Of a stretch of 64,000 nt of DNA, positions 9,837-54,398 are shown one piece after another; position 1 is the first letter of the stretch, and every line of letters begins with the position of its first letter. Source of the DNA: a virus. Under the pieces are notes generated by a model that was given only the letters and a program-made list of their open reading frames with translations, ran no database searches and was not told the DNA's origin. Where the stretch lies: the IMG/VR virus record IMGVR_UViG_3300012642_000011, positions 128,001 through 192,000 of that record; one strand, written 5' to 3'. Made by a program: the position numbers and the translations under genes.

Positions 9837-9908
9837 GCTTCTGTAGGTTAACGGTAAACCAGATGACTCTAAATCATTGACATGCGGGTTCGACTCCCGT
9901 CAGAAGCA
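9837..9908 (+). tRNA. suppressor-type tRNA (anticodon CUA, reads UAG)
   Basis: acceptor gcttctg/cagaagc; D-stem ggtt/aacc; anticodon stem gatga/tcatt loop ctCTAaa (U33, A37); T-arm gcggg-ttcgact-cccgt; no alternative register gives a 5-bp stem. Confidence 0.7.
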
Positions 9909-10010
9909 CGAAGATAAAGTAAATCTCTTAAGTTGAGTTTACTCTTTCTTCTGTCTACTTGACAACACAAGAAGTATAGTGTACAATAGAAGACAACAAC
10001 AACAAAATAT

Positions 10011-11875: not shown

Positions 11876-12016
11876 ACAGGAATAACTCAATGGTAGAGTG
11901 CTCAGAGTTCTGTCCACGAAGGTTCGATTCCTTCTGAAGCCAAGGTGGCATGGTTAACAGGTAACGTTCAAAAGAAGACTCATGAGAAGATGAAGGTTCA
12001 AATCCTTCTTCCTGTA
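11876..12016 (+). ncRNA. composite tRNA-like element (141 nt) with two T-arm hairpins
   Basis: 5' acaggaa (11876-11882) followed by canonical ta-actc-aatggta-gagt D-arm; two T-arm hairpins gaagg-ttcgatt-ccttc (about 11918-11934) and gaagg-ttcaaat-ccttc (about 11992-12008); terminal ttcctgt (12009-12015) is a perfect 7/7 complement of the 5' end; no canonical anticodon arm could be folded. Confidence 0.4.
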
Positions 12017-12347: not shown

Positions 12348-13838
12348 ATGAATTTCTTAGAAGCACATCCAGAAGTTTCATCATCATGGTCTGAAAATAA
12401 TGCATTCTCTCCTGACTCAATCTCCAAAGCATCAAGGAAAAAAGTCATCATCATCTGTGATAAACATGGTGACTATGAAATCAGGGCAGATTCTTACCAC
12501 AATGGCAACAGATGCAAACAATGTGCAGCAGAAGTCAAAGCACAGAGCAAGATCACGAAAGCAATTGCTCAACATGGAAGCGGTCTAGAAAAGTACCCCT
12601 CGCTAAAAAAGTATGCAGTAAGAGATTTCCACGCTAAAGATGATCACAAGATACCATTCCGCTGTCCCGATTGCGCACACGAATGGACGCTATCGCCCTA
12701 TAGTCAAATGATTATCAACGGCTGCCCACAATGTGACCCACAGGCAAAGATAAGAATGAAGAATCACATTCCTACTATGAAGTCTTTGACACATGGAAAC
12801 ATAGCAGACCAGAAACCAGAGATAGTTGCACAATGGTCGCCAAAAAATGATCTAACAACAGAACAAGTCAGTTGCGGTTCTGGTTATCGCGCTACATGGA
12901 TATGTGAGATCAATCCGAACCATGAATGGGAATCCTTTGTTTACCAGAGAGCAGGAAAGAAGGAAACAGGATGCCCACAATGCAATATATCTGGAATAGA
13001 ATCAGAAATTGGTCAACTCCTATCCGATCACCATGTTGACTTCATTCGTTCCAATCGAAAAATTATTGCACCCTATGAACTGGACATATACATTCCAGAG
13101 AAAAATGTAGCCATAGAAGCCAATGGTGTCTATTGGCATACAGAAAAACAAGGAAAAGATAGGAACTATCACTACAACAAGTGGAAACAATGCCATGATC
13201 AAGGAATCCAACTGATCACCATCTGGGAAGATGACTGGATGATGAAAAAAGAACTCATTAAAAAGATGATTCTTCACAAGATTGGACTATCCCATCAGAA
13301 AAGTATCTACGCACGTACATGTTCAGTCAAAGATGTTCCCACTATAGAATCCAATAGATTCTTGAATACTTACCATATTCAAGGAGAAGCAAGAGGAAGT
13401 GTGAAGATTGGACTTCACCATGAAGGAGAACTGGTTGCTATCTCCGTATGGAAGAAACTTAAAGAAGATGAATGGGAATTATCTCGCTATGCAACAAGCA
13501 TGAACGTTGTTGGTGGAGCAAGCAAAGTCATCAAAGCATTCATTCGTCAACACTCGCCAAGCAAGATTGTCACATTCGCTGACCATGAAGTATCTGATGG
13601 TGGACTATATGAAAAATTAGGGTTCACTGCCGACAAGGAGATCAAGCCTGATTACAAGTATGTTATAGACAACAAAAGAATACACAAGTTTAATTATAGA
13701 TTGAAGAGGTTCAAGAGCGATCCCACACTCATCTACGAAGAAGGATTGAGTGAATCACAGTTGGCTCAACTGAATAACATTGATAGAGCATGGGATTGCG
13801 GTAAAACACGATATATTCTGCAGTTACCCTTGATTTGA
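12348..13838 (+). CDS. putative freestanding homing endonuclease: N-terminal zinc-ribbon repeats + C-terminal DUF559/Vsr-like PD-(D/E)xK nuclease (paralog 1)
   Basis: 496-aa ORF, RBS aagga; repeated xxCxxC...HEW...GCPQC units; nuclease core ELDIYIPEKNVAIEANGVYWH; conserved tail RAWDCGKTRY shared with 15917 and 20738 ORFs. Confidence 0.75.
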   Translation: MNFLEAHPEVSSSWSENNAFSPDSISKASRKKVIIICDKHGDYEIRADSYHNGNRCKQCAAEVKAQSKITKAIAQHGSGLEKYPSLKKYAVRDFHAKDDHKIPFRCPDCAHEWTLSPYSQMIINGCPQCDPQAKIRMKNHIPTMKSLTHGNIADQKPEIVAQWSPKNDLTTEQVSCGSGYRATWICEINPNHEWESFVYQRAGKKETGCPQCNISGIESEIGQLLSDHHVDFIRSNRKIIAPYELDIYIPEKNVAIEANGVYWHTEKQGKDRNYHYNKWKQCHDQGIQLITIWEDDWMMKKELIKKMILHKIGLSHQKSIYARTCSVKDVPTIESNRFLNTYHIQGEARGSVKIGLHHEGELVAISVWKKLKEDEWELSRYATSMNVVGGASKVIKAFIRQHSPSKIVTFADHEVSDGGLYEKLGFTADKEIKPDYKYVIDNKRIHKFNYRLKRFKSDPTLIYEEGLSESQLAQLNNIDRAWDCGKTRYILQLPLI

Positions 13839-14323: not shown

Positions 14324-14396
14324 GGGGGATTAGCTCAATGGGTAGAGCGTCTGCTTTGCAAGCAGAAGGTAAGGGGATCGTAGCCCCTATCCTCCA
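14324..14396 (+). tRNA. tRNA-Ala (anticodon UGC) with G3:U70
   Basis: acceptor gggggat/atcctcc with G3:U70 wobble and A73; anticodon stem tctgc/gcaga loop ttTGCaa; T-arm agggg-atcgtag-cccct. Confidence 0.8.
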
Positions 14397-14663
14397 CGTA
14401 GGGCAGGTTTCCAGACCTGTAATTGTTTCCCGTCGTGACCAGTATTACTGGTCACGTAAGAAGATTCACTTTCCCTACACATAGTGTTTCTTCGCCGCGA
14501 TTTCTACATTGCTGGAACAGTGTGCGGTAGGAGTTTATAGTTGCAATCAGAACAAAGGAAATCAACTGTGAGCAACGCCAGACTTGTTTTCATGTGGTCT
14601 CTTCAGCAGTCACATGAGGACAAGATTAGCCCTCCGGTCTTCAGGGAAGTAAAGAGGGCATAT

Positions 14664-15208: not shown

Positions 15209-15283
15209 CAGGCGGTAGGGAAGTTTGGTCATCCCGCCTTCCTTGGGAGAAGGAGATCGGTGGTTCGAATCCACCTCGCTTGA
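15209..15283 (+). tRNA. tRNA-Pro (anticodon UGG)
   Basis: acceptor caggcgg/tcgcttg (two G:U); D-stem ggga/tccc; anticodon stem ccttc/gaagg loop ctTGGga; T-arm ggtgg-ttcgaat-ccacc. Confidence 0.7.
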
Positions 15284-15320
15284 CTGATTGCTTATTGATA
15301 CTCTCAATAAGTAATATTGA

Positions 15321-15369
15321 GGGGGCGGTTACGTAACCCTTAGAACTGGCTCGATACCAGTTGCCTCCA
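15321..15369 (+). ncRNA. tRNA-like minihelix MH1 (acceptor stem + mini-hairpin + T-arm, no anticodon arm) with Ala-type G3:U70/A73
   Basis: gggggcg-gttacgtaac-ccttagaa-ctgg-ctcgata-ccag-t-tgcctcc-a: 7-bp acceptor (G1-C72, G2-C71, G3:U70, G4-C69, G5-C68), palindromic mini-hairpin, T-arm-like hairpin, discriminator A. Confidence 0.5.
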
Positions 15370-15423
15370 CTGTTGTCCACTATTCTGACAATGAAGATTC
15401 TTGAAGAAATTTGAGATGATGAG

Positions 15424-15452
15424 TTGACAATAAGTTATCAGTATGCTATGAT
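15424..15452 (+). promoter_or_regulatory. sigma70-type promoter (TTGACA-17-TGcTATGAT) driving minihelix MH2
   Basis: ttgaca 15424-15429, spacer ending gtatgc, tatgat 15447-15452; MH2 begins about 20 nt downstream. Confidence 0.5.
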
Positions 15453-15471
15453 GGTAACATCAATTGAATAT

Positions 15472-15519
15472 GGGGGTAGTCACGTGACTCATGAATTGGT
15501 TCGATACCAGTTACCTCCA
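15472..15519 (+). ncRNA. tRNA-like minihelix MH2, paralog of MH1, Ala-type G3:U70/A73
   Basis: gggggta-gtcacgtgac-tcatgaa-ttgg-ttcgata-ccag-t-tacctcc-a: same architecture and the same first five acceptor pairs as MH1 and as tRNA-Ala at 14324. Confidence 0.5.
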
Positions 15520-15707
15520 CGATGAAAACTACGATTAGTATTCGCATTCTATAGTAGTGAGTAATTACTGAAAACTCAATATAGTTCGTGCCGAGTACTC
15601 TGACTCATAATCAGAGGAAGCCTACAGGGCCTGCTTAGGCAGGTACACTGAGCGCGTTATGCGTGGATTGAGGCAATGCGAAAAGAGAACATTGGGTTTT
15701 CTTTTAT

Positions 15708-15782
15708 CGGGATATAGGAAAGTTTGGCTAATCCGCCTGCTTTGGGAGCAGGAGACCGACAGTTCAAATCTGTCTATCCCGA
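15708..15782 (+). tRNA. tRNA-Pro (anticodon UGG), second copy
   Basis: acceptor cgggata/tatcccg; anticodon stem cctgc/gcagg loop ttTGGga; T-arm gacag-ttcaaat-ctgtc. Confidence 0.8.
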
Positions 15783-15916
15783 CAGTGTATGAAATAGACC
15801 AGTAAATTACTGGTCTATTTTTGTTTTTGATGGTCGTTTTTATCTTACTTCTCACCATACTTGTATACTTCTCCCAAATGGTGTGCTCTAAGCATAGATC
15901 TTGTTATCATATATGT

Positions 15917-17665
15917 ATGAAGCCCCAACTGTATGAGTATTTTTTAGATCATCCCGAAATGAAAGCAATGTGGTCACGTCGCAATAGTGACGAACTGTTG
16001 TCTAAAACGGCTGGAAGCAATGTGAAGGCACTATGGTCTTGCTCTACTTGTGGGCAAGAATCATTAATCCCTATTTACCGCAAGGTCAACAATCCTCTTA
16101 CATGTTCTACATGCAATGGGAGCAAGGTGGTTCAAGGGGTGAATGATTTGGAAACAATGTATCCCGAAATAGCGTCTGAATGGTCGTCGAGGAATGAGAA
16201 GAAACCTTCAGAAGTAAAATATAGTTCTGCAATCACTGCTGAATGGGATTGTAAAAATGGGCACTCTTTTACTATGTATCTTCCTGAAAGGACGAGATCG
16301 ACCAGGAAATCTCGGGGGTGCCCTGAGTGTAGAAGACAAGAAATCCAGGAAGACAAAGAGAATAACCCTAATAAGCGCTCTATTGCATCGGGAAATGGAT
16401 CAGCGGAGATGCAGCAGATGTTTGTGGAATCATTAGGAAAGATCAAATTTCCAGGAGCGAGGTCAGGCACACTTTGCTTATGGAGATGCTCGAAGGGGCA
16501 TGAATGGAGGCAAGTTCCTAAGAGATTTAATGGATGTGAAATCTGCGATCCGCCCCAGTATATTCTACCGCAGTCCAGGAACAAAAACATTTTAAAGGTA
16601 TCCAATTCGATCCTCCACACTCATCCTCATGCTATAGAATTATGGAATGATTCAAGAAGTCCAGAATCAGTAACTAAAGGATCATCCTATCGCGCTCAAT
16701 GGAAGTGTGCTAAAAACCATCAATGGGAACAATCTGTCTACACAGTGCTCCGGTCCCTCGACAAAGGTCACAAAGCATGCCCTCATTGCTCTTCCATGAT
16801 TTCTGCTGCTGAAAAGAAAATCTCTGAGATTGTAAAGGAGGCAATGAATCCATTGGGTTTAACTGTCCTCACTTCCCATCGTAAATTGATTCCTCCCTAT
16901 GAAGTAGACATTTATGTTCCTGAGAAGAAGATTGCTATTGAATACAATGGTCTCTACTGGCATAGTGATGCTAATCGAAAGGGTAAAGACAGGAATTATC
17001 ACTACAACAAGTGGAAGAAATGCAAAGATCAAGGTGTCCAATTGATCACCGTGTGGGAGGATGATTGGCGTGACCATGAGGACATTGTGACATCAATGTT
17101 GTTGACCAAGTTGGGTGTTTCTGATGCTCAGAAAGTCAATGCTCGTGATTGTGTGATCGTAGAATCTTCTTATACCGATTCTTCTGCATTTCTTGATGCT
17201 CACCATATTCAAGGTTCAGCAAGAGGGAGTTTCTATCTTTCCTTATTGCATGATGGTGTCATGGTGGCAACTTCGGTGTGGGTGAAGAGGGGGTCAGACC
17301 TTGTTCTTGAGCGCTACGCAACCTCTGTGAGCGTTCGTGGTGGCATGGGTAAACTGTTGAAGGCTGGGTGCATAGAAGGCCGTCAGAGGGGCGCACAGCG
17401 CGTTGTGACTTTTGCTGATCATGGTGTTTCTGATGGTGGATTGTATGAGCGCCTTGGTTTCGTTGCTGACAAGGTGTTGAAGCCTGATTATGCGTATGTT
17501 GTAGATGGTGATAGGAAGCATAAGTTCAATTACAGGTTGAAGAGGTTCAAGAATGATCCAGTATTGAGATATGTGGACGGTTTATCTGAATCCCAGTTGG
17601 CTGAGTTGAATGAGATTCCTCGTGTATGGGATTGTGGGAAGACGCGGTATGTGATGGGTCTTTGA
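15917..17665 (+). CDS. putative homing endonuclease: zinc-ribbon repeats (DUF4379-like) + DUF559/Vsr-like nuclease (paralog 2)
   Basis: track ORF 15821..17665 starts over the preceding tRNA; first ATG at 15917 (MKPQLYEYF); repeats GVNDLETMYPEIASEWSSRN...GCPEC; nuclease EVDIYVPEKKIAIEYNGLYWH; tail RVWDCGKTRY. Confidence 0.75.
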   Translation: MKPQLYEYFLDHPEMKAMWSRRNSDELLSKTAGSNVKALWSCSTCGQESLIPIYRKVNNPLTCSTCNGSKVVQGVNDLETMYPEIASEWSSRNEKKPSEVKYSSAITAEWDCKNGHSFTMYLPERTRSTRKSRGCPECRRQEIQEDKENNPNKRSIASGNGSAEMQQMFVESLGKIKFPGARSGTLCLWRCSKGHEWRQVPKRFNGCEICDPPQYILPQSRNKNILKVSNSILHTHPHAIELWNDSRSPESVTKGSSYRAQWKCAKNHQWEQSVYTVLRSLDKGHKACPHCSSMISAAEKKISEIVKEAMNPLGLTVLTSHRKLIPPYEVDIYVPEKKIAIEYNGLYWHSDANRKGKDRNYHYNKWKKCKDQGVQLITVWEDDWRDHEDIVTSMLLTKLGVSDAQKVNARDCVIVESSYTDSSAFLDAHHIQGSARGSFYLSLLHDGVMVATSVWVKRGSDLVLERYATSVSVRGGMGKLLKAGCIEGRQRGAQRVVTFADHGVSDGGLYERLGFVADKVLKPDYAYVVDGDRKHKFNYRLKRFKNDPVLRYVDGLSESQLAELNEIPRVWDCGKTRYVMGL

Positions 17666-20737: not shown

Positions 20738-22675
20738 ATGAAACTCTGTGATAAGTATCCCCAGCTTAAAAATAAGTATTCACAACTTAATAATACTATT
20801 TTTGAGGAAAAAGAGTATCGATACGATGAGTATCTTTTTTGGGATTGTCCTCAAGGGCATCATATTTATAAGCCTGCTAGAGAAATCAATAGATATCAAA
20901 ATTGCAATTCCTGTGAAAACATCAAAAAGACTGGGATTGAGTTCTTTGAAAGCTTGGAATACCTCTATCCCTCTATCGTAGAAAAATATAGTGTCAAAAA
21001 TATTCTTTCTGCAAACAGTGTTCGACCAGACTCACTTTTTAATGCAATCTGGGAAGATCGAGATGAGAAAATAAAAATATACGATAGGGTTCTGGAAGAA
21101 ATATCTTCAGGAAATGTGAAAAGAAATCATGTAACGAAGAGAAACGTAAAAAATAGAAAAAAGAAAGACAATGTTTCTGCGGAAAGTATATCCAAGCCGC
21201 AAGAAAAAGAGGATTCACCTCTTTTAAAAGATGCCTACCCAGACCTTTATGAAATGCGATTAAACGATTGTGAAGATCTTAATATTTGGTCTAATAAAAA
21301 ACTTTTGTGGAAGTGCGACAAAGGGCATGAGTTCACTTCAAGTATACGAAACCTCATTAAAAGATCAACTAAGTGCAATGTCTGTAGTGGAGTTGCCTTG
21401 CAAAAGGGAGTCAATGATATTTCGACCCTGGCTCCTGACCTTGCCTCATGCATTGTATCTCCTGACCCTTCAGAAATTACATTAGCATATAATAAACCTA
21501 TCACTTTTAAATGTTTCACTTGCATGCATCAGTGGGTTTCAAATTTGGATAAAAGAAAAGACAGATCTTTAAGATGTCCTGGATGCAGCGGAAAAACTGT
21601 AATTCATGGATTCAATGACATTGAAACTATTATGCCGCACATCAAAAATTCATGGGCAAAGAATAATAAATACATGCCTTCTGAAATGACAACAAAAAGC
21701 GAAAAAGAAGTATACCTTTATTGTTCGAATGGAATATCGCATGATCTGGTTAAGACTTATGCATATGTAATTTCTCGAACACCTAATAGGAGAACTTATT
21801 TATGTAATCACTGTTCTGGATCTGCTGGTGAAATCGATATGGCAAATTTCATTGCTTCGCTCGGATTTACCACAATCAGAAAAGACAGGAAAATTATAAG
21901 GCCAAAAGAACTGGATGTATATCTTCCTGATCTCAAGGTGGCTTTTGAATACAATGGTCTCTATTGGCATTCAGATAAGGCAGGCAAATCCGACACCTAC
22001 CATTACGACAAGTGGAAGCGCTGTGCTGACAAGGGTATCCAGTTGATCTCTATCTGGGAGGATGATTGGAACTATCGTGAGGACATTGTCAAGAGGATGA
22101 TTGCTCACAAGTTGGGCGTCAGCAATGATCGCAAAGTCTACGCTCGGCAAACCGATGTCGTCATTGTAGACAAGGATGATGCCCGAGCGTTCTGCAATGC
22201 CCACCACATTCAAGGCTATGTATCTGGTAGCGTCTACTATGGTCTCAAAGATCGCAGGACGGATTCTTTGGTGGCTGTGAGCGTCTGGAAGCGTTCAGGT
22301 GACCAATTGCGCCTTGAGAGGTATTGCACGTCTGAGAACGTGATTGGTGGCATGGGAAAGATGTTGAAAGCGGGAGTCCAGTATGCCAAGGACAATGGGT
22401 TGAGCAAGATCGTCACTTTCTCTGATCATGATGTCTCTGATGGTGGACTGTATCGAAGACTTGGATTCATTCCTGACAAGGAGTTGAAGCCTGATTACAA
22501 GTATATCGTCGGCGGTACCAGGGTTCATAAATTCAACTATCGCATCAAGAGGTTCAGGGATGATCCGAACTTGAAGTATGCTGATGGTCTCACTGAATCC
22601 GAGTTGGCGCAGTTGAACAGTCTTCCTCGTGTTTACGATGCCGGCAAGACGCGTTGGGCGATCAATGTATCCTAA
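20738..22675 (+). CDS. putative homing endonuclease: zinc-ribbon repeats + DUF559/Vsr-like nuclease (paralog 3)
   Basis: 645-aa ORF; repeats LQKGVNDISTLAPDLAS..., HGFNDIETIMPHIKNSWAKNN...; nuclease ELDVYLPDLKVAFEYNGLYWH; tail RVYDAGKTRW. Confidence 0.75.
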   Translation: MKLCDKYPQLKNKYSQLNNTIFEEKEYRYDEYLFWDCPQGHHIYKPAREINRYQNCNSCENIKKTGIEFFESLEYLYPSIVEKYSVKNILSANSVRPDSLFNAIWEDRDEKIKIYDRVLEEISSGNVKRNHVTKRNVKNRKKKDNVSAESISKPQEKEDSPLLKDAYPDLYEMRLNDCEDLNIWSNKKLLWKCDKGHEFTSSIRNLIKRSTKCNVCSGVALQKGVNDISTLAPDLASCIVSPDPSEITLAYNKPITFKCFTCMHQWVSNLDKRKDRSLRCPGCSGKTVIHGFNDIETIMPHIKNSWAKNNKYMPSEMTTKSEKEVYLYCSNGISHDLVKTYAYVISRTPNRRTYLCNHCSGSAGEIDMANFIASLGFTTIRKDRKIIRPKELDVYLPDLKVAFEYNGLYWHSDKAGKSDTYHYDKWKRCADKGIQLISIWEDDWNYREDIVKRMIAHKLGVSNDRKVYARQTDVVIVDKDDARAFCNAHHIQGYVSGSVYYGLKDRRTDSLVAVSVWKRSGDQLRLERYCTSENVIGGMGKMLKAGVQYAKDNGLSKIVTFSDHDVSDGGLYRRLGFIPDKELKPDYKYIVGGTRVHKFNYRIKRFRDDPNLKYADGLTESELAQLNSLPRVYDAGKTRWAINVS

Positions 22676-27527: not shown

Positions 27528-28541
27528 ATGAAATACCATATTGATGATAATGGGACACCAAAAGTATGTGATGCTTCTTATGATAACTGTCCTTATGGGG
27601 CTGATGCTCCACACTTTGACAATAAGGCAGATGCTCACCAATACTATGAGAAGATCAATACGTCAGAGGAGATTCCTTCTGGACTGTCAAAGAAAAAGTC
27701 AAAGTCTCCTATGATGGTCTCTGTTTACAGAGCAGGCAGAATGAGTCCAGCCAGTGCTGAAGAGAGTTTTGAAGATCTAGAAAGGGTCAAGAAACTCTTT
27801 GATGATCGTGCCCCAGAAGGGAGGCAGAAAAGATCAGGAGCACTTTTCGCCAGTCCTGATTTAAAATCACATTCCAGATGGGTCGGCAGTTCTGGCCCTG
27901 CATCATTGACCAGTCATGAGTTTAAAGTAGATGCGAATAATGTATATATTTACAATGTCAATCTTTACGAGAATGCGTCTTATACGGATGAATCGGAAAG
28001 CATTGAAACTGTAAATAAAATGATTGATGATTATTGGAATTCTGGAATGACTCTTGCCCAATGGCATCAGATGTCCGAAGAGGAAAAGGGTGATTATGGC
28101 TCATGGGAGATTCTTCTTCCTTCAGATCGGGAATACAAAACTAAGAAAGTTCCTAATAAAACAGTAATCACTGAATCTGATCCTTCCCTATCAAATCAAC
28201 TCAATTGGTCTTTAGAGAGAAAACGAGCCAGAAATGGACTTATATGGAGAAAATCTCACCTATCAGAAGATGATTATCAGCAGGTAAAACAATCTCTTTC
28301 ATCAGAGAATATTGATGAAGAATTCATTGAAGACATGGAGAGCATTCATAGATCAAATGCTTACAGGGTTGAGGATTTGTATTCCGCAAGAATGGAAATC
28401 TACAACAAGTACAAGAACATCAGAAAGAAAAAAGATGACATAATACCCAATTACAGTCAGATCAATGACGGACAGAAGGAGGAGTTCTTCAATAAGGTTG
28501 AGGTCTATTTCAAGAAAACTGATGATTTTTCACATACATGA
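27528..28541 (+). CDS. N-module protein, 337 aa
   Basis: track ORF; N-term MKYHIDDNGTPKVCDASYDNCPYGADAPHFDNKADAHQYYE; its last 13 codons are duplicated downstream at 30724-30765. Confidence 0.7.
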   Translation: MKYHIDDNGTPKVCDASYDNCPYGADAPHFDNKADAHQYYEKINTSEEIPSGLSKKKSKSPMMVSVYRAGRMSPASAEESFEDLERVKKLFDDRAPEGRQKRSGALFASPDLKSHSRWVGSSGPASLTSHEFKVDANNVYIYNVNLYENASYTDESESIETVNKMIDDYWNSGMTLAQWHQMSEEEKGDYGSWEILLPSDREYKTKKVPNKTVITESDPSLSNQLNWSLERKRARNGLIWRKSHLSEDDYQQVKQSLSSENIDEEFIEDMESIHRSNAYRVEDLYSARMEIYNKYKNIRKKKDDIIPNYSQINDGQKEEFFNKVEVYFKKTDDFSHT

Positions 28542-28542
28542 G
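28501..28542 (+). repeat. left copy of 42-bp direct repeat flanking the surface-protein cassette
   Basis: aggtctatttcaagaaaactgatgatttttcacatacatgag; 41/42 identical to 30724-30765. Confidence 0.7.
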
Positions 28543-28641
28543 TAAGAATTATCGGATTATATTAAATCTTTTTATTTCATATAATCCAATAGCCTCCGAT
28601 ATTCCTTAATGCCATCTTAGTTTATCATAGGAGAATATGAT

Positions 28642-32174: not shown

Positions 32175-32801
32175 ATGATACAAGAGGGAGTTGAAATGAT
32201 GAGTCAGAGAATGCGTATTGGTGAAGCGTGTGAGTACTTGGGTATTCACCAGCAAACTATGAGAAAATATGTAAAACAGGGAAAAATTCCCTGCTCCTAC
32301 AATGACGCAGGACAAAGAATCTTCCTTCTTGAAGACCTCAAAAAATTCATTGGCGAACCCGTATCGCAAGAAAAATACTCCCCAATCTTCTATGTTCGAT
32401 CATCAGACGGAGACAAAAAACTCATCCAAAAACAGATCGAACTTCTCACCGAAAAATATGGTGAGCACCCCGTCATCAAAGACACGGGATCAGGACTCAA
32501 CGAAAAAAGACAAGGACTACAAAGACTCATAAAACTCGCCAAGAAAAGAGAAATATCCCACATCTACATCACCCACCAAGACCGACTCACCCGATTCGGA
32601 TTCACCTACCTACAAGAACTCTTCACAGCATACGGAGTAGAAATCCACACTCTCAACCCAAAGAAAAACAACACACCACACGAAGAACTCATGCAAGACT
32701 TCATGAGCCTCATCGCAAGTTTCAGCGGACGCTTCTACAGAATGAGAAGCAAAGAAAACCAAAGAAAACTCCTTGAAAAAGCAGCAAAAGAGGTCGCATG
32801 A
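32175..32801 (+). CDS. tnpA: IS607-type transposase TnpA (MerR-like HTH + serine recombinase catalytic domain)
   Basis: 208 aa; HTH MRIGEACEYLGIHQQTMRKYVKQGKIP; catalytic IFYVRSSDGD and THQDRLTRFG. Confidence 0.8.
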   Translation: MIQEGVEMMSQRMRIGEACEYLGIHQQTMRKYVKQGKIPCSYNDAGQRIFLLEDLKKFIGEPVSQEKYSPIFYVRSSDGDKKLIQKQIELLTEKYGEHPVIKDTGSGLNEKRQGLQRLIKLAKKREISHIYITHQDRLTRFGFTYLQELFTAYGVEIHTLNPKKNNTPHEELMQDFMSLIASFSGRFYRMRSKENQRKLLEKAAKEVA

Positions 32802-34372
32802 AAAACAGCATCTATCGTGGACTCACCCTACCCCTCCAAGAATACTACCGAATTATAAGAGGGAAGAAAAACTCGGAGTACTCACCTGTCAACAATCAAG
32901 AAGTCATGGACAAGATCGGTAAAACCATAACGATTGTAAAAGACTGCGTAAAATGGGGGATCAACACCCCACAAAATGCAGAATACTACAAAGCCATCAA
33001 CAGCGGAGCACACCCAGAAACCGGCGAACAATTACCCACTAACCTCAATGAGCAAGCCCGCATTCTCAATCATAAGTACCAAGAATACTTACCGGAAGAA
33101 ATGAAAGGGAAATCCATTGTTGAACGTATGATCGGTCACAATCTTCTCGAACTTGAAAGCGCCTTTGGGAAGAAACTCAAAGCAATACATGGAGAAGAAT
33201 ACATTTCTCAAGGATGGGCGCGAACCATCAATAGCGTACTCCCACAACCCAGCGCAAAAATTAACATTGGTAGCACGAACAATGTCTACTCTTCCCAAAA
33301 AGTCGAGGAAAATAAAATTATTCTCGACATGATCTGCTACGATAACTGGTATCGACTTATTTTTACAATTCCTGAGAATTATCAAAAGACCGACTACAGT
33401 AAGATCTCAAAACCGTTGATTACGCTGAACGATCAAGGCGAGATGAAGTTCTATTTCAGTTTTGAATATGATCGTTATTATCCTGAAATCAGCGATCAGT
33501 ATGTTATTGGTGTTGATGTGGGCGTTGTAAAACCAATTGTTCTTAGCGTTATTGAGATCAAAACTGGAAGAATCGTTGCTTCTCATGAATCAACGCCACT
33601 GATTGATTCTCTGGTTCACGATATCAAGCAGACTCAGGAGCAGATCACGAACCTCTACAAAAAGGTTGAGAAATATATTAAAAATGGCGATTACCCTGCT
33701 TATGATAGAGCAATGACCGAAATCCAGCAGGAGCGTTTGGGATTGTCTCGTAAGAGGAAGGAGATGGCGAAGCGTATTGGTCAGTTTGTATCGGATATTG
33801 CTTGTGCTTGGGGCGATCCTGTGATTGCTGTTGAGGATCTTGGTTGGGTTCGCAATACGATGCAGAATGGTCGTTGGAATCGTGGTGAGATTGTGAATTG
33901 GGTGGAGCATTATGCGAATCTTGACGGGAGACTGTGTTATCGTGTGAATGCTGCTCATACTTCATCCACGTGTTGTCTTTGTGGTAGTAAGGGTTATTTT
34001 TCATCTGGTCGGGTTTTCAATTGTTCTTCTTGCGGTGAGAGAATCGATAGAGATGAAAATGCTGCGGCAAATATTGGCAAAAGAGTGATCAATAGCGCCC
34101 TGAAATCAAGCAAAACGAGAAAGAAAAGAAGGAAAGAAAAATGCATTACTGAACAATCTAAGCGTAGGTCACCAGTGAATAGGGGCGCTAAGAATCGCCC
34201 CACTCCTGTTCGTCCTGCTAAGAAGAAAAAGAAAACAGTTCTGAAAAGACAAGAAAAAGTAAAAGATTTTGGTTCCTGTACTAAGGGTAGTATGGGGTTC
34301 GAGAGAGCAGATTCTTCAAAGAACACCCTCACGGGTAACCACAACAATCTTACCATTACTCAAAAAGAGTAA
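32798..34372 (+). CDS. tnpB: TnpB (OrfB, RuvC-like nuclease with C-terminal zinc finger)
   Basis: 524 aa; C-terminus CCLCGSKGYFSSGRVFNCSSCGERIDRDENAAANIG is the TnpB/Cas12-like zinc finger + RuvC-III motif. Confidence 0.85.
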   Translation: MKNSIYRGLTLPLQEYYRIIRGKKNSEYSPVNNQEVMDKIGKTITIVKDCVKWGINTPQNAEYYKAINSGAHPETGEQLPTNLNEQARILNHKYQEYLPEEMKGKSIVERMIGHNLLELESAFGKKLKAIHGEEYISQGWARTINSVLPQPSAKINIGSTNNVYSSQKVEENKIILDMICYDNWYRLIFTIPENYQKTDYSKISKPLITLNDQGEMKFYFSFEYDRYYPEISDQYVIGVDVGVVKPIVLSVIEIKTGRIVASHESTPLIDSLVHDIKQTQEQITNLYKKVEKYIKNGDYPAYDRAMTEIQQERLGLSRKRKEMAKRIGQFVSDIACAWGDPVIAVEDLGWVRNTMQNGRWNRGEIVNWVEHYANLDGRLCYRVNAAHTSSTCCLCGSKGYFSSGRVFNCSSCGERIDRDENAAANIGKRVINSALKSSKTRKKRRKEKCITEQSKRRSPVNRGAKNRPTPVRPAKKKKKTVLKRQEKVKDFGSCTKGSMGFERADSSKNTLTGNHNNLTITQKE

Positions 34373-34821: not shown

Positions 34822-34896
34822 TAGGGTATGGAATTAATGGTATTTCGTCGTACTCAAGGTTATTACGAAGATACGGGTTCGATTCCCGTTACTCTA
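34822..34896 (+). tRNA. tRNA-like gene with 11-nt anticodon loop (non-canonical)
   Basis: acceptor tagggta/tactcta (7/7 with one G:U), D-stem gaat/attt, T-arm acggg-ttcgatt-cccgt, 75 nt; the only stem in the anticodon region is tcgta/tacga enclosing ctcaaggttat (11 nt). Confidence 0.4.
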
Positions 34897-35031
34897 TCTC
34901 GTCCCGATGCCTCTGGTCTCTTTGGAGATTATGCACACTTCGTGGTCACTGGTGGCACTTGATCAATGCTGTCAAACCTGATCTATGAGTAGTCATAGGT
35001 TGGACTTCAACTTGTTCATTAGAAGGTATTC

Positions 35032-36471: not shown

Positions 36472-37536
36472 ATGAAGAAATACCACATCAATCTCAAAGG
36501 TAATGTGATGCCATGCGAGGCTGATGTCAAGCCTTGCAAATTCGGATCTGCAGATCACTTTGAAAGCAAAAAGGCAGCACAACAATCATTTGAAGATGCT
36601 GCAGAGAAAACGCCTTTAAAGAATAGAGAAAAATTCAAAGATCAATCAGATTATTTTGCCTCTATAGCCCAAGATTCCCTTGATTCTGAATATGTGATGG
36701 TAGGAGATAAAAATCGTGATGTTTTGAGTTTCTCATCTGCTGAACTTGCTAAAGGGAACAGTAAGATCGTGGCTGATTATATGAAATGGTATACAGAGCC
36801 ATATGAAGGAGATCATGATGATGACTATGATGACTATACACCTCCTCAAGAACTCTCTGTGACATGCTACAATCCCCGTGGACCACACTTCTCTGACGAT
36901 CACTATGCTAACTACTACATTGATGACAATGGGCAGAAGATCATTGTGGATTATGGATTCTCAGAGTTCGATGAAAATGAGAATCAACCTTATGTTGGTA
37001 CAGAAGATCAGTGGAAACGTGATATCAAGCATCATGCTTACATGGGTTCTGTGTTGTCAGAAAGAACTATAAAACTGCAACGTCGATCAGGTACTCTTCC
37101 TGTATTTCCTGCAGGAGAAAAGAACCCTCTTTTAGATAAGACTGTCTTGGAAGAGCCAGAAGGAAGAAATCCATTCAAGGGTCCAAAGGACAATTATCCT
37201 CACACACGCTTTCTTTCTGTTGATGGCATAAGAGTAGCGGCTGTTCAATATGGTCTTGACGAGGATGGCAAAACACCAAAGATTTGGTCTGCAGAGACAA
37301 GGAAAGAGTACAGAAATCAAGGTTACATGACCAAACTGTATAATATGCTTGCAGAGGATTACAACGTTCCTCATGTGACATCAGGAGGATCATACACTCC
37401 CGATGGTTATGCTTATATGAAGAGATATCACGATGCTCACGGTCAGACAGAGGGGAAAATCAACTTCCCCTACTATCAAGGAGAAAATAAGTTTTCCTTT
37501 ATACACGATTGGGTTGATAGAGGAGAATTTAATTGA
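36472..37536 (+). CDS. N-module protein, 354 aa, possible acetyltransferase-like C-terminus
   Basis: N-term MKKYHINLKGNVMPCEADVKPCKFGSADHFESKKAAQQSFE; C-term YRNQGYMTKLYNMLAE resembles the C-termini of 17735/18793. Confidence 0.7.
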   Translation: MKKYHINLKGNVMPCEADVKPCKFGSADHFESKKAAQQSFEDAAEKTPLKNREKFKDQSDYFASIAQDSLDSEYVMVGDKNRDVLSFSSAELAKGNSKIVADYMKWYTEPYEGDHDDDYDDYTPPQELSVTCYNPRGPHFSDDHYANYYIDDNGQKIIVDYGFSEFDENENQPYVGTEDQWKRDIKHHAYMGSVLSERTIKLQRRSGTLPVFPAGEKNPLLDKTVLEEPEGRNPFKGPKDNYPHTRFLSVDGIRVAAVQYGLDEDGKTPKIWSAETRKEYRNQGYMTKLYNMLAEDYNVPHVTSGGSYTPDGYAYMKRYHDAHGQTEGKINFPYYQGENKFSFIHDWVDRGEFN

Positions 37537-38202: not shown

Positions 38203-38277
38203 GGTCGCATGGCTCAATCTGGTTAGAGCGCTTCCCTGACTCGGAAGAGGTTGTGGGTTCAAATCCCGCTGCGACTA
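38203..38277 (+). tRNA. tRNA-Val (anticodon GAC)
   Basis: acceptor ggtcgca/tgcgact (G1:U72); D-arm gctcaatctggttagagc; anticodon stem cttcc/ggaag loop ctGACtc; T-arm gtggg-ttcaaat-cccgc. Confidence 0.8.
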
Positions 38278-38548
38278 CTACAGCAAACATGCTGAACAAG
38301 TGTCACGGAGTTAGAATGTGCGCAACGGGTCAGGGGCGGAAGTCAGCATCCCACGCACATAATGGCTGGTGTGATAACCAAGAGACCACTGAAAAGTGGT
38401 CTCTTGTGTTTTGAATCTTTCTTTTCATTCAGTAAACAGAATCATCACCTTCCCGAGATGTGTACAAAAGTATACACCAAAAAGCATAAAACAATGCAGT
38501 TACGTTGATAACATAGTAATGATAAGCAAATACAATAGGAGTATAAAA

Positions 38549-39102: not shown

Positions 39103-39249
39103 AATAATTATAATAAACATAAAAGATTTAAATAGCATTAGAATACAAATGACAAATCTATTTCCGCTTGACAATTCCGTTGAAGCATGCTATCTTTGAC
39201 ACCATGAGATCATGACAATGAATCATAGACAACTACATAGAGGAACCTT

Positions 39250-39299
39250 GTCTGCAACTCAATTAGGGAAAACAAATGGTTCGATTCCATTTGCAGACA
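39250..39299 (+). ncRNA. tRNA-like minihelix MH3 (acceptor stem + T-arm, no anticodon arm)
   Basis: gtctgca-actcaattagggaaaacaa-atgg-ttcgatt-ccat-t-tgcagac-a: perfect 7-bp acceptor pairing, T-arm-like hairpin, discriminator A; followed by about 260 nt of GC-richer, hairpin-rich non-coding sequence. Confidence 0.45.
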
Positions 39300-39727
39300 C
39301 TGGAAGCAAGCGCTGGATGCTGTCGCGGTGCATTGGAAACAATGGCTGAGGAACTTCCGAGCTACACAACCTTACCTTGCAGGAGAGGGAAACCTCGTTT
39401 TTACTGGGAAGCCACAACTTAAAAAGCAGAGGCGGCGGGAGTAACAACGCAAACAGAACAGAGAGTGGAGTTGCTCGTTGACGTTCGGGTATGCGGCTTA
39501 GACAGATGACAAGCAGCAATCAAAAGATTGTAACAGAACTCGGGGTATGAGGCGCTTGCTTCCTTCTCTCATAGAATATGATTTTTGGAACAGATAAATT
39601 TATCTGGCATATAAATCAATCTCAATATTGATAACATAGAACACAACGTTATCTCATAGTTGCTTCTGTACGATAACTTAACTATGAGAGTATTCTCTTA
39701 TCAACGATAAACAGAAAGGTGATAATC

Positions 39728-40540
39728 ATGATGCCAAAAAATCTCGTCTTTGTCCGTCATGGCGAATCGGATGGAAACATTGCTGTAGAGAGGTCCAAAG
39801 TAGGAGACTACAGGCACTATACTGACGATTTTGTTAACATTCCCGGTAGCCAATGGCGACTTTCACCCAAGGGAATTGAGCAAGCGCAGACAACAGGCAC
39901 ATGGTTGAAGGATGTCTACAAACAGTTCCATCGACAGATTGTTTCTCCTTATGTGCGAACAAAGGAAACGGCAGGACACCTCGGAATGGGTGGGAACTGG
40001 ATGATGAACCGCGCCGTCCGTGAAAGGGATTGGGGCGACATTGGATCTGTTCTTCGAAAGGACTTCCAGACAGAGTATCCCCGTAACTTTACAATGAAGT
40101 CTATCGACCCATTGTACTGGCGTCCTCCGGGCGGAGAATCCATTGTTGACGTTTCAGAGAACCGAGTCAGAAACCTTCTGGACACTTTGCACAGAGAATG
40201 TGAAGGTGATGATGTCCTTGTTGTTTCTCATGGTGAGTTCATGTGGGCTTCTCGTCTCGTCCTAGAGAGGTGGAGTGATACTGAATTCATCAACAGGGAT
40301 TCTGATAAGAATGAGAAGATCCATAATGCTCAGGCCATCTGCTACACCAGAGTGAATCCGCACACTAATGAACTGGCAAAGCGTTTAGAATGGGTTCGCG
40401 TGGCTACGCCTGTGATCGATGATAACGGAGTGTGGTCAATGAATGTCAGCAAGTGGCAGAAGTTTGGAAGAGAACTCCTCACTGATGAGATGCTTCTTGA
40501 AGAAGTCAACAAGATTCCTCATTCCATTTCTTACGATTGA
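39728..40540 (+). CDS. histidine phosphatase superfamily protein (phosphoglycerate-mutase-like)
   Basis: catalytic motif VFVRHGESDGN near the N-terminus; ATG at 39728 after aaaggtga. Confidence 0.7.
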   Translation: MMPKNLVFVRHGESDGNIAVERSKVGDYRHYTDDFVNIPGSQWRLSPKGIEQAQTTGTWLKDVYKQFHRQIVSPYVRTKETAGHLGMGGNWMMNRAVRERDWGDIGSVLRKDFQTEYPRNFTMKSIDPLYWRPPGGESIVDVSENRVRNLLDTLHRECEGDDVLVVSHGEFMWASRLVLERWSDTEFINRDSDKNEKIHNAQAICYTRVNPHTNELAKRLEWVRVATPVIDDNGVWSMNVSKWQKFGRELLTDEMLLEEVNKIPHSISYD

Positions 40541-43744: not shown

Positions 43745-43800
43745 GAAAACGCGTTGTGCAGTTAGTGGTTTTAATCCCATGTTGCACAACGCGTTTTCTT
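43745..43800. terminator. bidirectional terminator between convergent genes
   Basis: inverted repeat gaaaacgcgttgtgca-N22-tgcacaacgcgttttc. Confidence 0.6.
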
Positions 43801-44947
43801 ATCGGGAAATCAAAGCATCGACTGCATTCATAGCCTGATTCAATCTACTGTAGTAGTTTCCAGAGATCACTTGATATTTCACACCTTGACTATCAAGCAG
43901 TGCTTTCAGTCTTTGAGATGACCTTTCTCTGACCTCTTGATCCCCAAACACGCGTGTACCATCATCCACCCATTCCACGTCGGGATCAAGGAACAACCAC
44001 AAATCAAACTTCTGAGACTTGGCAATAGCCTCAACAAGCGGTTGCTCAACATCTTCCCCTTCATACTCTACGCTGAAGTTCTGTGTCACATATGCTTCTG
44101 TGTCAACAAAAAGGATCTTGTTCGCTTCCTTTTGCTTTTTATAAACTTCATGCGCATGCTCAACAGCAATCTGTGAGAAGTCTTCAGGAAGAGTATTGTA
44201 GTCATTCATTTTCTCATAGAATGTTCTGCCGATTTCCTCCACATAACATGTTCCATACAGGGAAGCAAGATTCCTCACCATCGTGCTTTTCCCATTGGAT
44301 TCTGTGCCAACAATGACCACCTTCTTGACGAAATGCTCCCTGACTACAGAAGGAATCATATCCCAATGTTTAAGAACCCCATCCTGCCTTATTTTGGTAC
44401 CACTGATGTTGAACCTTGATCGCTGATGATCAATGATCACATGTGTTGCCTCTGGGTACAAACGCGCAAAGATGGAATCATACTCATATTCTGAAGAGAA
44501 AACCGCATCAATAGGCTTCCCGATAACATTTTTAATCCCATCAGCGCCCTTTTGCCAATCCTCAATATGACCAGTCTGTTCCTCGTAAACAGCGTGAACA
44601 TGAACATGAGGCATATCTTTAGTGATCTGTTTCCACCACCTGACTCTAAGTTTGTAATTGACCTTACTCACCTTGTTGTCTGCATACAGAGAATCTTCAT
44701 ATTTTTCATCATAAGAAACAATGATATGCAACTCTTTACACATAGTAGACGCCTGAATCATGGCATATAGGTGACCATTATGAGGGATGATGAATTTACC
44801 ACCATAGAATCCAACATCGAACTGATTTTCAATGACTTTGGACATTCCTGCATTTGTATCTTCTGTGATAACAATGGTCTCTGGTCTCAATTGGTTCTTA
44901 TCTTTCATCACTATTTCCTTTTCCAATTCAAGAGTGTTAGCAATCAT
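43799..44947 (-). CDS. nadR: NadR-type bifunctional NMN adenylyltransferase / ribosylnicotinamide kinase
   Basis: nucleotidyltransferase motif GGKFIIPHNGH and P-loop GTESNGKST; ATG at 44947 overlaps the pnuC stop (ATGA); track ORF extends further upstream. Confidence 0.75.
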   Translation of the reverse strand: MIANTLELEKEIVMKDKNQLRPETIVITEDTNAGMSKVIENQFDVGFYGGKFIIPHNGHLYAMIQASTMCKELHIIVSYDEKYEDSLYADNKVSKVNYKLRVRWWKQITKDMPHVHVHAVYEEQTGHIEDWQKGADGIKNVIGKPIDAVFSSEYEYDSIFARLYPEATHVIIDHQRSRFNISGTKIRQDGVLKHWDMIPSVVREHFVKKVVIVGTESNGKSTMVRNLASLYGTCYVEEIGRTFYEKMNDYNTLPEDFSQIAVEHAHEVYKKQKEANKILFVDTEAYVTQNFSVEYEGEDVEQPLVEAIAKSQKFDLWLFLDPDVEWVDDGTRVFGDQEVRERSSQRLKALLDSQGVKYQVISGNYYSRLNQAMNAVDALISR

Positions 44948-45708
44948 CACAAAACCTCTTCCTTCTGGTTTCCTGCGATCTTTCTCCAATTGATGTAGCC
45001 ATACACGCTGTTGACCAAGAAAGCAATCCACATCACAAGGATGGAAAGGTTGTTTCCTCCTTGCTCAATCATTGTCATGATCCACATGGTGATAGTCAAA
45101 ATATTAATCACAATCCATACAAGCCACTGCTCCACGAACCTATTGATCATAAGGATTTGTGCAACAATGCTGAGAACAGTGGTCACACTATCAAGGCCAA
45201 TGGATCTTCCACCAATAGTAGAAAGGAAGAAGGCATAGACCACACTGAGAGCAATAGTGGACGCCACGAGGATTGCCCACTTCTTGAGATCCATTTTCTT
45301 AGCAATGACCTGTTCTCCTACTACACTCTCTTTGCTCTTTACGGCATTCTTCCTCCACAGATAGAACCCGATAAACTGCATGGGGATGTAGAAGAGCCAG
45401 TTAAGCATTACTTCACCGTAAATGGCATATGTATAAGAGATGTAGCCATACAAGGCTGCTTGAATAAAGCCGAAGAAGTAATTACTGATTTTACCCTTGG
45501 CGACCAGAACTACACAGATCATTCCTGCCATGGCAGCAATCAGACTGATTACTGTTCCATCTGTGAACAGAAATACAGCAAGGTTGACCAAGAAAAAGAT
45601 GGTTATCCATACTCTTTCAAATATAGTCCATTCAGAAAGAGATCCAAAAATAGATCTCAAAACATTCTTTGTAGTGAATCGAGGTGTAGTAACTGTAGCA
45701 GTACTCAT
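44947..45708 (-). CDS. pnuC: PnuC-family nicotinamide riboside transporter
   Basis: polytopic membrane protein with PnuC-like W-rich helices; start MSTATVTT with RBS aaggag; track ORF 44947..45765 trimmed. Confidence 0.7.
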   Translation of the reverse strand: MSTATVTTPRFTTKNVLRSIFGSLSEWTIFERVWITIFFLVNLAVFLFTDGTVISLIAAMAGMICVVLVAKGKISNYFFGFIQAALYGYISYTYAIYGEVMLNWLFYIPMQFIGFYLWRKNAVKSKESVVGEQVIAKKMDLKKWAILVASTIALSVVYAFFLSTIGGRSIGLDSVTTVLSIVAQILMINRFVEQWLVWIVINILTITMWIMTMIEQGGNNLSILVMWIAFLVNSVYGYINWRKIAGNQKEEVL

Positions 45709-46103
45709 TTCTTTCTCCTTTGTTTTTGTTCTGCTGGCGATGGAGACCAAAACCCAGCAAGGCATTCATAACCAAGTTTTCTTGATCAACACTAATATAT
45801 CAAAGTGACTACTAAGAAATCGACTAAAGTGACAATCACCACAATATCTTGGTTTTTAGTGATATCAAACCGACAATTCCTTTTGATATGATTATGTATC
45901 AGTTTTTGTATCCAAAAAGAAAGGGGAAATAAAATGGATAATCTCCCTATGACAGATACCGAAGAGTGGGGAATCGAAGTCGCAAAGGAAATAGATGCCA
46001 TGATTCGAGTGCAATCCTCATTCAATATGTAATTGAGCCTCTCGACAACCTCTTATACTTTGCCATCTTCTTTAGAGAAAAAGACATCCATCAAGGAGGA
46101 ATA

Positions 46104-51336: not shown

Positions 51337-51636
51337 TGATGTTACACAACTGAATATGTAATCCATCAGCAGCCTTGAGAAAGGCTGCTGACATGGGCTT
51401 GACAGGTTTCGATTGGCAACGAAAAAAGTCAGATGCAAGTCACCTTTGGGTAAGAGGTGTAAAAAAGATCCAAAAAAATAATTGCAAACTCTGCAAAGAA
51501 CGATTTCGCCCTAGCTGCGTGATCCATCAGTGTGGTAACTCTGGTTTCTGGTCCACACTGGTGTCGCTTTAAGAAACCACCATCATTCCTTCGCCATAGG
51601 GGAATGAAATGGTACAATATGGCAACATCTATGAAA

Positions 51637-51738
51637 GGGTCTGCCATCGCTTTCATAGATTACTCAATGGCAGTAAACTTGTGAACGAATCTTTCTTTGG
51701 AAATTGTCAAGACCCCGGTTCGATTCCGGGCAGGTCCA
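51637..51738 (+). ncRNA. over-long tRNA-like element (about 102 nt)
   Basis: 5' gggtctg pairs 7/7 (one G:U) with 3' caggtcc after a canonical T-arm cccgg-ttcgatt-ccggg; contains a D-arm-like tact-caatggc-agta; no canonical anticodon arm; about 28 nt longer than a type I tRNA. Confidence 0.35.
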
Positions 51739-51768
51739 CTCTCAATTTAAGGTATTGGTGATGAAAAG

Positions 51769-52851: not shown

Positions 52852-52915
52852 TAGAATAGAAGAACAAGAACCGGATCAAGAAAATATTCTGATCCAATGA
52901 AACATTGGAGTGCAT

Positions 52916-54397: not shown

Positions 54398-54398
54398 G

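Follow-up and report, generated by a model that had tools for sequence, protein, structure and literature searches.

The acceptor stem and T-arm of transfer RNA (tRNA), stacked on each other as a minihelix, are a classic laboratory model and have been proposed as the ancestor of tRNA. The synthetic minihelix of tRNA-Ala is a substrate of alanyl-tRNA synthetase (AlaRS), RNase P, the CCA-adding enzyme and EF-Tu. We know of no minihelices that occur as natural genes, tag-less fragments of transfer-messenger RNA (tmRNA) excepted, and a full-text literature search returned no description of phage minihelices as such. Here we describe two minihelices with alanine identity, MH1 (positions 15321–15369) and MH2 (15472–15519), and a third without it, MH3 (39250–39299), all on the plus strand of a 64,000-nt stretch of a large phage-like genome (IMG/VR record IMGVR_UViG_3300012642_000011, positions 128,001–192,000), referred to in full length as the window.

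The closest natural system is formed by tmRNAs that have no coding sequence (CDS) and retain the tRNA-like domain (TLD). A 'TLD only' tmRNA is listed in mycobacteriophage DS6A by Hudson, Lau and Williams (PMC4131195), and according to the same paper a molecule similar to it strongly inhibits the tmRNA of E. coli. CDS-less tmRNAs are further reported from jakobid mitochondria and Mallomonadaceae plastids (about 65 bp) in the 2025 tmRNA database paper (PMC11915505). We placed the DS6A element at positions 28478–28557 of JN698994, where it spans 80 nt and has the D-loop GGUCGAC. This precedent was missed by the first-pass annotation of the window, in which MH1–3 had been proposed, as were the paralogy of MH3 and its position beside a candidate RNase P RNA.

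MH1–3 were located at the positions proposed for them, in non-coding DNA on the tRNA strand; open reading frames (ORFs) that overlap the MH1/MH2 region are short and none is credible. The parts of MH1 (49 nt) are GGGGGCG / GUUACGUAAC / CCUUAGA / ACUGG-CUCGAUA-CCAGU / UGCCUCC / A, that is, acceptor 5' strand, a side hairpin of 3–4 bp with the loop ACGU, a 7-nt linker, T-arm, acceptor 3' strand and discriminator, and those of MH2 (48 nt) are GGGGGUA / GUCACGUGAC / UCAUGA / AUUGG-UUCGAUA-CCAGU / UACCUCC / A. The order of the parts is thus as first annotated, with linkers of 6–7 nt instead of the 7–8 nt given there. MH3 (50 nt) has the same architecture on a different acceptor without G:U pairs (GUCUGCA / 18 nt / AAUGG-UUCGAUU-CCAUU / UGCAGAC / A). 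In all three a 7-bp acceptor is stacked on a T-arm with a UUCRANY-type T-loop, C54 replacing U54 in MH1, and the acceptor strand is separated from the T-arm by just 16–18 nt, which form neither a D-arm nor an anticodon arm.

MH1 and MH2 have G1-C72, G2-C71, G3:U70, G4-C69, G5-C68 and A73 in common, and the first five acceptor pairs and A73 of the canonical tRNA-Ala(UGC) of the window (14324–14397, +; acceptor GGGGGAU/AUCCUCC-A; ARAGORN and Rfam) are identical to this set, which can be read directly in the sequence as the first-pass annotation had done. Together with a 12-bp coaxial acceptor/T stack, the G3:U70, A73 and G2-C71 of MH1 and MH2 are the features of an AlaRS substrate, and G3:U70 with A73 is also the alanine identity of tmRNA. 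MH3 has A73 and lacks G3:U70, and with it alanine identity by either measure.

Folding was evaluated using RNAfold. The minimum-energy structure and the centroid were both the proposed minihelix in MH1, MH2 and MH3, each with acceptor and T-arm stacked over 12 bp and a small hairpin at the side, at ensemble frequencies of 0.64, 0.49 and 0.19 and with folding z-scores of -1.85, -2.13 and -2.77, respectively. An alternative 6+6 register of the 12-bp stack folds equally well. Folds were weaker on the minus strands (z-scores of -1.41 and -0.36), and the G:U pairs, namely G3:U70 in both MH1 and MH2, G7:U66 in MH1 and U50:G64 in MH2, form solely in the plus-strand transcript, so the structure belongs to plus-strand RNA. 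A descriptor requiring an acceptor of 7/7 pairs, a T stem of 5/5 pairs, a YTCRANN loop and a span of 38–62 nt matched exactly MH1–3 on the plus strand of the window and nothing on the minus strand, at an expectation of 0.2 from shuffled sequences, and returned 7 matches, all unconvincing, in 1.27 Mb of unrelated phage loci. In the gap 5' of tRNA-Asp, 60 nt at 11957–12016 (+) form a weak candidate for a fourth minihelix-like element, with the acceptor ACAGGUA/UUCCUGU (6/7 pairs) and the T-arm GAAGG-UUCAAAU-CCUUC followed by A73 and C.

Comparison with known RNA families sets MH1–3 apart from both tRNA and tmRNA. ARAGORN made no gene call at their sites, and the Rfam tRNA model RF00005 gave no match there at gathering score nor at E≤10. 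They are therefore not parts of longer canonical tRNAs, in keeping with the first-pass annotation, which had named this as a way in which it could be wrong. tRNA-Ala shares with MH1 and MH2 the first five acceptor pairs, the discriminator and the 3' flank described below; unlike tRNA-Ala, the minihelices have no D-arm, no anticodon arm and an unrelated T-arm sequence. The T-loop of this tRNA-Ala is itself odd (AUCGUAG), A54 and U58 being apparently swapped. The synthetic tRNA-Ala minihelix shares the 12-bp acceptor/T stack, the T-loop, G3:U70, A73, G2-C71 and G1-C72. Unlike it, MH1 and MH2 appear to occur naturally as genes that have a promoter; a side hairpin and a linker are added where their acceptor joins the T-arm, and most copies have C54.

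The tmRNA model RF00023 did not match at the sites of the minihelices even at E≤10. Models of permuted and beta tmRNA gave local matches to the T-arm and 3' strand at 6.5–13.7 bits, while genuine TLD-only elements reach 47.9 bits on the tmRNA model. A two-piece permuted tmRNA running from the T-arm of MH1 to the 5' strand of MH2 was considered and rejected (E about 1, 13.7 bits), as the match is due to common T-arm and CCUCCA features and each minihelix is self-contained. No match to Bacterial Y RNA (YrlA) was obtained at gathering score, nor at E≤10 around MH1 and MH2. CDS-less tmRNAs resemble MH1 and MH2 in having an alanine-type acceptor (G3:U70, A73) on a T-arm, no anticodon and no tag reading frame, and in DS6A they too have a phage-borne case. 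They differ in length (about 65–80 nt versus 48–49 nt) and in the D-loop analogue GGNUUCGAC located between the acceptor strand and helix 2a. No GGNUUCGAC-like D-loop is found 5' of helix 2a in MH1–3, whereas one is present in DS6A and in the IMG/VR loci L087, L105 and L081 described below. In MH1 and MH2 a hairpin of 3–4 bp instead abuts the acceptor and is followed by a linker of 6–7 nt before the T-arm; in addition RF00023 is blank and the same phage has a full-length tmRNA. On account of the missing tmRNA D-loop and of the absent RF00023 match, binding of SmpB by MH1 and MH2 is doubtful. The ORFs scanned in the window, which is one part of the genome, include no SmpB gene. The best reading of this comparison is that MH1 and MH2 may be grouped functionally with CDS-less tmRNAs, yet are not members of the tmRNA family. 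They are tag-less alanine tRNA mimics, as judged by their acceptor, smaller and differently built than known ones.

The paralogy of MH1 and MH2 proposed in the first-pass annotation was supported by their alignment. Roughly 12 positions differ, about a quarter, mainly in the unpaired linker, and standard pairs occupy 98.7% of pair cells compared with 31–61% in slid controls. Two pairs are changed on both sides, 6:67 (C-G/U-A) and one in the hairpin (U-A/C-G), and three more show compatible one-sided changes. The T-arm of MH3 is at most 3 mismatches away from that of MH1 and MH2 and provides a third state at pair 50:64 (C-G, U:G and A-U), which makes all three minihelices paralogues.

Close relatives were reached solely through two neighbouring proteins and comprise the loci L110, L111 and L112 for MH1 and MH2 (MH1 being present in L111 and L112) and L116 for MH3, all about 98–99% identical over the whole intergenic region. 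MH3 is identical in L116. In the other relatives 4 variable columns were found in the 97 nt of the minihelices, 9 in 326 nt of spacers and 0 in the 76 nt of tRNA-Pro. One of the four minihelix variants, a change from U-A to U:G in the hairpin, is pairing-neutral, and another is U54/C54 in the T-loop: UUCGAUA, as first annotated, holds for MH2 in the window alone, and the three close relatives have CUCGAUA, so C54 of MH2 is probably ancestral. The remaining two, G67C of MH1 in L111 and, in L112, a GGGGG run of MH2 that is one G shorter, are taken up below. In IMG/VR, DnaE relatives are ≤38% identical and the minihelix pattern used in the search for distant relatives had no matches, nor was a minihelix present in a phage with a 62% identical histidine phosphatase and 12 tRNAs (L117). 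JGI metagenomes returned, in the search for relatives of the minihelices, only tRNA-Tyr genes and one unrelated 43-nt candidate. The latter, at about 1330–1372 of a short metagenome contig (L113), is not called by ARAGORN and reads GCCUGAA / 11 nt / AGUGG-UUCGAUU-CCACU / UACAGGC / A with 6/7 acceptor pairs.

The flanking DNA of MH2 is of tRNA-gene type. A TG-extended sigma-70-type promoter (TTGACA-17-TATGAT, 15424–15452, +) matching 11/12 consensus positions and conserved in relatives confirms the promoter attributed to MH2 in the first-pass annotation. It is followed by the 11-nt leader CAATTGAATAT (15461–15471, +), which ends at position -1 of MH2 and is found by sequence identity directly 5' of tRNA-Trp (10140) and tRNA-Gln (20151) as well, the promoter-plus-leader layout being repeated at tRNA-Gln. 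Downstream lies a non-coding stretch of 188 nt (15520–15707, +) that matches no Rfam family at E≤10, varies less among relatives than any other spacer (2 variable columns) and is probably co-transcribed with MH2. It contains an anticodon-arm-like hairpin (CUCUGA-CUCAUAA-UCAGAG, 15599–15617) and a tRNA-Pro-like anticodon stem with a shortened loop (15629–15643). The transcription unit probably ends with tRNA-Pro(UGG) (ARAGORN) and a predicted intrinsic terminator (15708–15821, +). On the other side, between an upstream tRNA-Pro (15209–15284) and MH1, a strong 12-bp hairpin without a U tract was observed (15287–15315, +), which may be a processing site. All window tRNAs and MH1–3 follow a common 3' rule, N73 followed by C and then a non-C base. 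CCA is encoded by no tRNA and no minihelix in the window, and the window carries an ORF for a CCA-adding enzyme (45966–47558, +; Pfam PolyA_pol head and tRNA_NucTran2_2 domains).

IMG/VR was scanned with a pattern composed of GGGGG, a gap of 18–30 nt, a GG-YTCGA-NN-CC T-loop core and CCTCCA. This resulted in 27 loci, and since the T stem is fully paired (5/5) in 26 of them they are not a product of chance. Six of the 27 were inside ordinary tRNAs, leaving 21 stand-alone matches, 11 of which have a 7/7 acceptor and constitute 8 independent families. The equivalent patterns with G3:C70 and A3:U70 returned 0 and 1 well-formed stand-alone matches. CCA directly follows A73 in 7 independent families, at a chance of 1 in 64 each. 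Three families have a tmRNA D-loop; L087 and L105 attain the gathering score of the Rfam tmRNA model and are TLD-only tmRNAs, and in L081 the D-loop was identified by sequence only. Four further families (L084/L103, L086/L095/L098, L092 and L102) have the layout of MH1 and MH2, in which a hairpin directly follows the acceptor 5' strand and is separated by a linker of 6–9 nt from the T-arm, and no Rfam model matches them. The likeness of MH1 and MH2 to these four families is one of architecture. MH1 and MH2 have a 7/7 acceptor, hairpin, linker, 5/5 T-arm and A73 and lie outside tRNA and tmRNA genes, as do members of this class.

A CCA-extended version of the pattern was run on one genome per species from 185,579 bacterial and archaeal species. 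Matches were mostly 3' ends of normal tmRNA and tRNA-Tyr genes, and just 2 were well-formed stand-alone G3:U70 copies with an encoded CCA, one in Nakamurella endophytica (L200, 6147–6197) with a hairpin-type layout and one in a metagenome-assembled genome of Kiritimatiellales (L194, 7570–7616). With so few copies in that many species the class is mainly viral. A recurrent, virus-enriched class of stand-alone minihelices biased to G3:U70 and CCA thus exists, and the G3:U70 bias and encoded CCA in viral contigs point to an acceptor function. No neighbour gene is common to the IMG/VR analogues, which lie beside terminase, RNA ligase/HNH or unknown proteins, and a BLAST comparison of two of the analogue loci with cultured phages found nothing.

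Taken together, the architecture, the identity set, the paralogy and the promoter bear out the proposal of the first-pass annotation that these are tRNA-type genes without an anticodon arm. Compensatory changes, paralogy, a promoter, a tRNA-type leader and the 3' rule argue that MH1 and MH2 are genes rather than debris, and we consider it likely that they are expressed as such. That the RNAs are CCA-tailed and alanylated seems somewhat favoured. As MH1 and MH2 cannot decode, they would serve as alanine acceptors outside decoding or would mimic the acceptor end of tRNA, and this is the best overall explanation of the sequence features, one that we regard as evenly balanced against the sum of its alternatives. 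The minihelices would be transcribed with the tRNA arrays, MH2 from its own promoter with a tRNA-type leader, and cleaved at G1 by the RNase P of the host or by the phage's own candidate RNase P RNA. Their 3' end would then be trimmed after A73, CCA would be added by the CCA-adding enzyme of the phage, and host AlaRS would charge MH1 and MH2 through G3:U70 and A73. The likeliest targets would be specific for alanine or recognise the acceptor end, for example AlaRS, EF-Tu, host factors inspecting tRNA 3' ends, or trans-translation where the A site is empty.

The proposal of dedicated alanine acceptors made in the first-pass annotation is thus supported in part, by architecture, identity, paralogy, the MH2 promoter and the viral G3:U70/CCA bias. 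Of the possible downstream roles named there, that of donors for an aminoacyl-tRNA-dependent transferase found no partner, as no Fem, MprF or L/F-transferase-like gene was present among the window ORFs scanned. A 354-aa ORF (36472–37536, +) with a weak C-terminal GNAT motif (residues 248–295) was considered as a candidate and set aside, having no match to FemAB or any other family and no solved relative.

Several observations weigh against an alanine acceptor. The same phage encodes a full tmRNA and a normal tRNA-Ala, and the family has in MH3 a paralogue without G3:U70, so that its function may not depend on alanine. MH1 and MH2 have no SmpB-bound tmRNA D-loop, and a mechanism of the DS6A type may therefore not transfer to them; C54 in the T-loop is unusual. 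Among close relatives the minihelices are conserved no better than spacers, and these relatives, at about 98% identity, provide no deep test of conservation. Finally, the G67C change in L111 and the lost G in L112 would weaken an alanine acceptor, and could be assembly errors or reflect relaxed constraint.

Among the alternatives, the one that fares best is that the minihelices are processing handles, minimal tRNA-like signals that recruit RNase P and tRNA 3' endonucleases to excise neighbouring stable RNAs. In the case of MH3 the excised RNA would be an RNase P RNA; in that of MH2 it would be the 188-nt spacer RNA together with tRNA-Pro. The alanine marks would be a mere legacy of tRNA-Ala or tmRNA ancestry. 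The position of MH3 keeps this explanation alive, which we nevertheless consider unlikely. A permissive Rfam scan of the MH3 locus found a candidate minimised RNase P RNA, class A-like, at 39306–39563 (+; RF00010, 49.5 bits, E=1.8e-14, below the gathering score of 100). The match runs end to end within 258 nt, with P1, P3 and both P4 strands intact and a reduced specificity domain, and the candidate is 99% identical in L116. Its P1 begins 6 nt past the end of MH3, and a single promoter (TTGACA-17-TATCTT with TG, 39168–39196, +) lies upstream of both. In the predicted precursor MH3 branches off between P1 and an outer helix of leader and trailer (AGAGGA/UUCUCU), and changes in L116 preserve the pairing of this outer helix. 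No other mini RNase P RNAs were found in IMG/VR by a P4-motif pattern search, and a full-text literature search found no report of an RNase P RNA encoded by a phage.

Small structured RNAs inside tRNA-type units are known from the species 1 and 2 RNAs of the T4 tRNA cluster and the tRNA-like/microRNA units of herpesvirus MHV68, and spacer tRNAs of ribosomal RNA operons are tRNA-like processing modules. These units, matured by tRNA-processing enzymes, share with the minihelices their setting, and the arrangement of MH3 and the candidate RNase P RNA resembles a tRNA-like element that releases a downstream RNA. They differ in having no homology to the minihelices and in being full tRNA mimics or unrelated folds, none of them an alanine minihelix. 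Within the window a bacterial small signal recognition particle (SRP) RNA (38297–38383, +; 40.4 bits, slightly over gathering score) starts 18 nt 3' of tRNA-Val (38203–38278), so the phage embeds other stable RNAs in tRNA-type units as well; the presence of an SRP RNA within a phage tRNA array is unusual in itself. Processing handles would further agree with the missing alanine identity of MH3 and with the well-conserved non-coding 188 nt that separate MH2 from a tRNA. On the other hand, MH2 and MH3 lie directly behind promoters, where the start of transcription could set the 5' end unaided, MH1 is followed only by the promoter region of MH2, several viral analogues directly precede ORFs and not RNAs, and the G3:U70 bias and encoded CCA of the wider viral class are left unexplained. 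The neighbourhood of MH3 does suggest that the shared module may serve more generally, as a tRNA mimic or in processing, and independently of alanine. Through the candidate RNase P RNA the phage may also supply its own enzyme for maturation of the minihelices.

A second possibility, mentioned in the first-pass annotation, is that the minihelices are decoys for defences or toxins that act on the acceptor end of tRNA, such as nucleotidyltransferase, pyrophosphokinase or acetyltransferase toxins and acceptor-stem nucleases, soaking up the effector so that real tRNAs are spared. Acceptor-stem-specific antiphage toxins that accept minihelix substrates have reportedly been described in a 2024 bioRxiv preprint, and decoys would account for the retention of exactly the acceptor/T-arm half of tRNA, for two alanine copies of which one is strongly promoted, and for the enrichment of the class in viruses. 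We consider this improbable, as no defence directed at the acceptor end of tRNA-Ala is tied to this phage or its host, there is no sign of such a conflict in the window, and a decoy needs neither encoded CCA nor exact alanine identity.

It is equally improbable that the minihelices are decaying, functionless remnants derived from tRNA-Ala or tmRNA genes by internal deletion. The conservation, no higher than that of flanking spacers, the two damaging variants and the other tRNA-like debris nearby, namely the anticodon-arm-like hairpins at 15599–15617 and 15629–15643, would be expected of remnants. Decay does not, however, explain why three paralogues keep the same architecture, why all stem pairs, two of them with compensatory double changes, are kept between MH1 and MH2 when about a quarter of positions differ, why MH2 is provided with a promoter of its own and a leader of tRNA type, or why the same layout recurs in unrelated phages, often with CCA. 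Least of all do we credit a role as DNA elements, in which the perfect 12-nt palindromes of both side hairpins, GGTTACGTAACC and AGTCACGTGACT, with their ACGT core and homing-endonuclease-like ORFs nearby, would be bound by a protein or cut by a homing endonuclease, everything else being coincidence: the window has no excess of 12-nt palindromes (13 found versus 17 expected), for which reason a network of such sites was rejected, any hairpin whose 4-nt loop is self-complementary is necessarily a palindrome, the hairpins of analogous elements elsewhere are not palindromic, and the acceptor/T-arm pairing and G:U pairs would go unexplained.

All 36 tRNA genes of the window, the tmRNA and the SRP RNA are carried on the plus strand (ARAGORN, Rfam). 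The full-length tmRNA (51395–51739, +) has the tag ANSAKNDFALAA and the acceptor GGGCUUG/CAGGUCC-A with G3:U70. One tRNA has the anticodon CUA ('Pyl' in ARAGORN; 9837–9909, +) and is a possible amber suppressor, and two have irregular anticodon loops, one of four bases (caag; 34822–34898, +) and one of two (tt; 2578–2649, +). Three plus-strand ORFs with DUF4379, a Hef-like homing endonuclease domain, each begin right after a tRNA gene, at 12348–13838 (Asp), 15821–17665 (Pro-UGG) and 20738–22675 (Pro-GGG). In L110 and L112 a shorter endonuclease allele (582 aa) accompanies a clearly different tRNA-Pro allele, a pairing that suggests endonuclease-driven gene conversion of the flanking tRNA-Pro.

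DnaE is split into a PHP/N-terminal part (52910–54397, +) and a remainder (55496–58183, +) with a clamp-loader-like ORF (54360–55487) in between. A serine recombinase followed by TnpB with a Cas12f-like TNB domain (32175–34372, +) looks like an IS607-type insertion in the phage. NadR-like (cytidylyltransferase and AAA_28) and PnuC-like nicotinamide mononucleotide transporter genes were observed on the minus strand (43799–45765). The closest cellular homologues of a histidine phosphatase (39719–40540, +) are found in Actinobacteria at 50–55% identity, which together with the NadR/PnuC genes hints at an actinobacterial host, and the tag ANSAKNDFALAA is consistent with this. A BLAST search found nothing similar to this phage among cultured phages, and its best DnaE relative in IMG/VR is only 38% identical.

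A wider generalisation can be offered tentatively. Phages may repeatedly encode free-standing alanine minihelices of 45–55 nt, natural equivalents of the synthetic one, with no anticodon, tmRNA D-loop or tag. Once provided with CCA and alanine, these RNAs would target the translation apparatus or its guardians, possibly by taking over nascent chains at empty A sites independently of SmpB, or by sequestering AlaRS, EF-Tu or acceptor-end toxins. In the genome studied here, MH3, without alanine identity, would then have been fused before a minimal RNase P RNA, resulting in a natural tandem of substrate and ribozyme. The pair formed by MH3 and this mini RNase P RNA is a second lead. The G3:U70/CCA bias suggests an unannotated class that escapes the tRNA and tmRNA finders now in use. 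Should expression and charging of MH1 and MH2 hold true, phages use minimal alanine acceptors beside tRNA, tmRNA, SRP RNA, RNase P RNA and CCA-adding functions, and this would provide a viral route to manipulate AlaRS, EF-Tu, ribosome rescue or tRNA-directed immunity.

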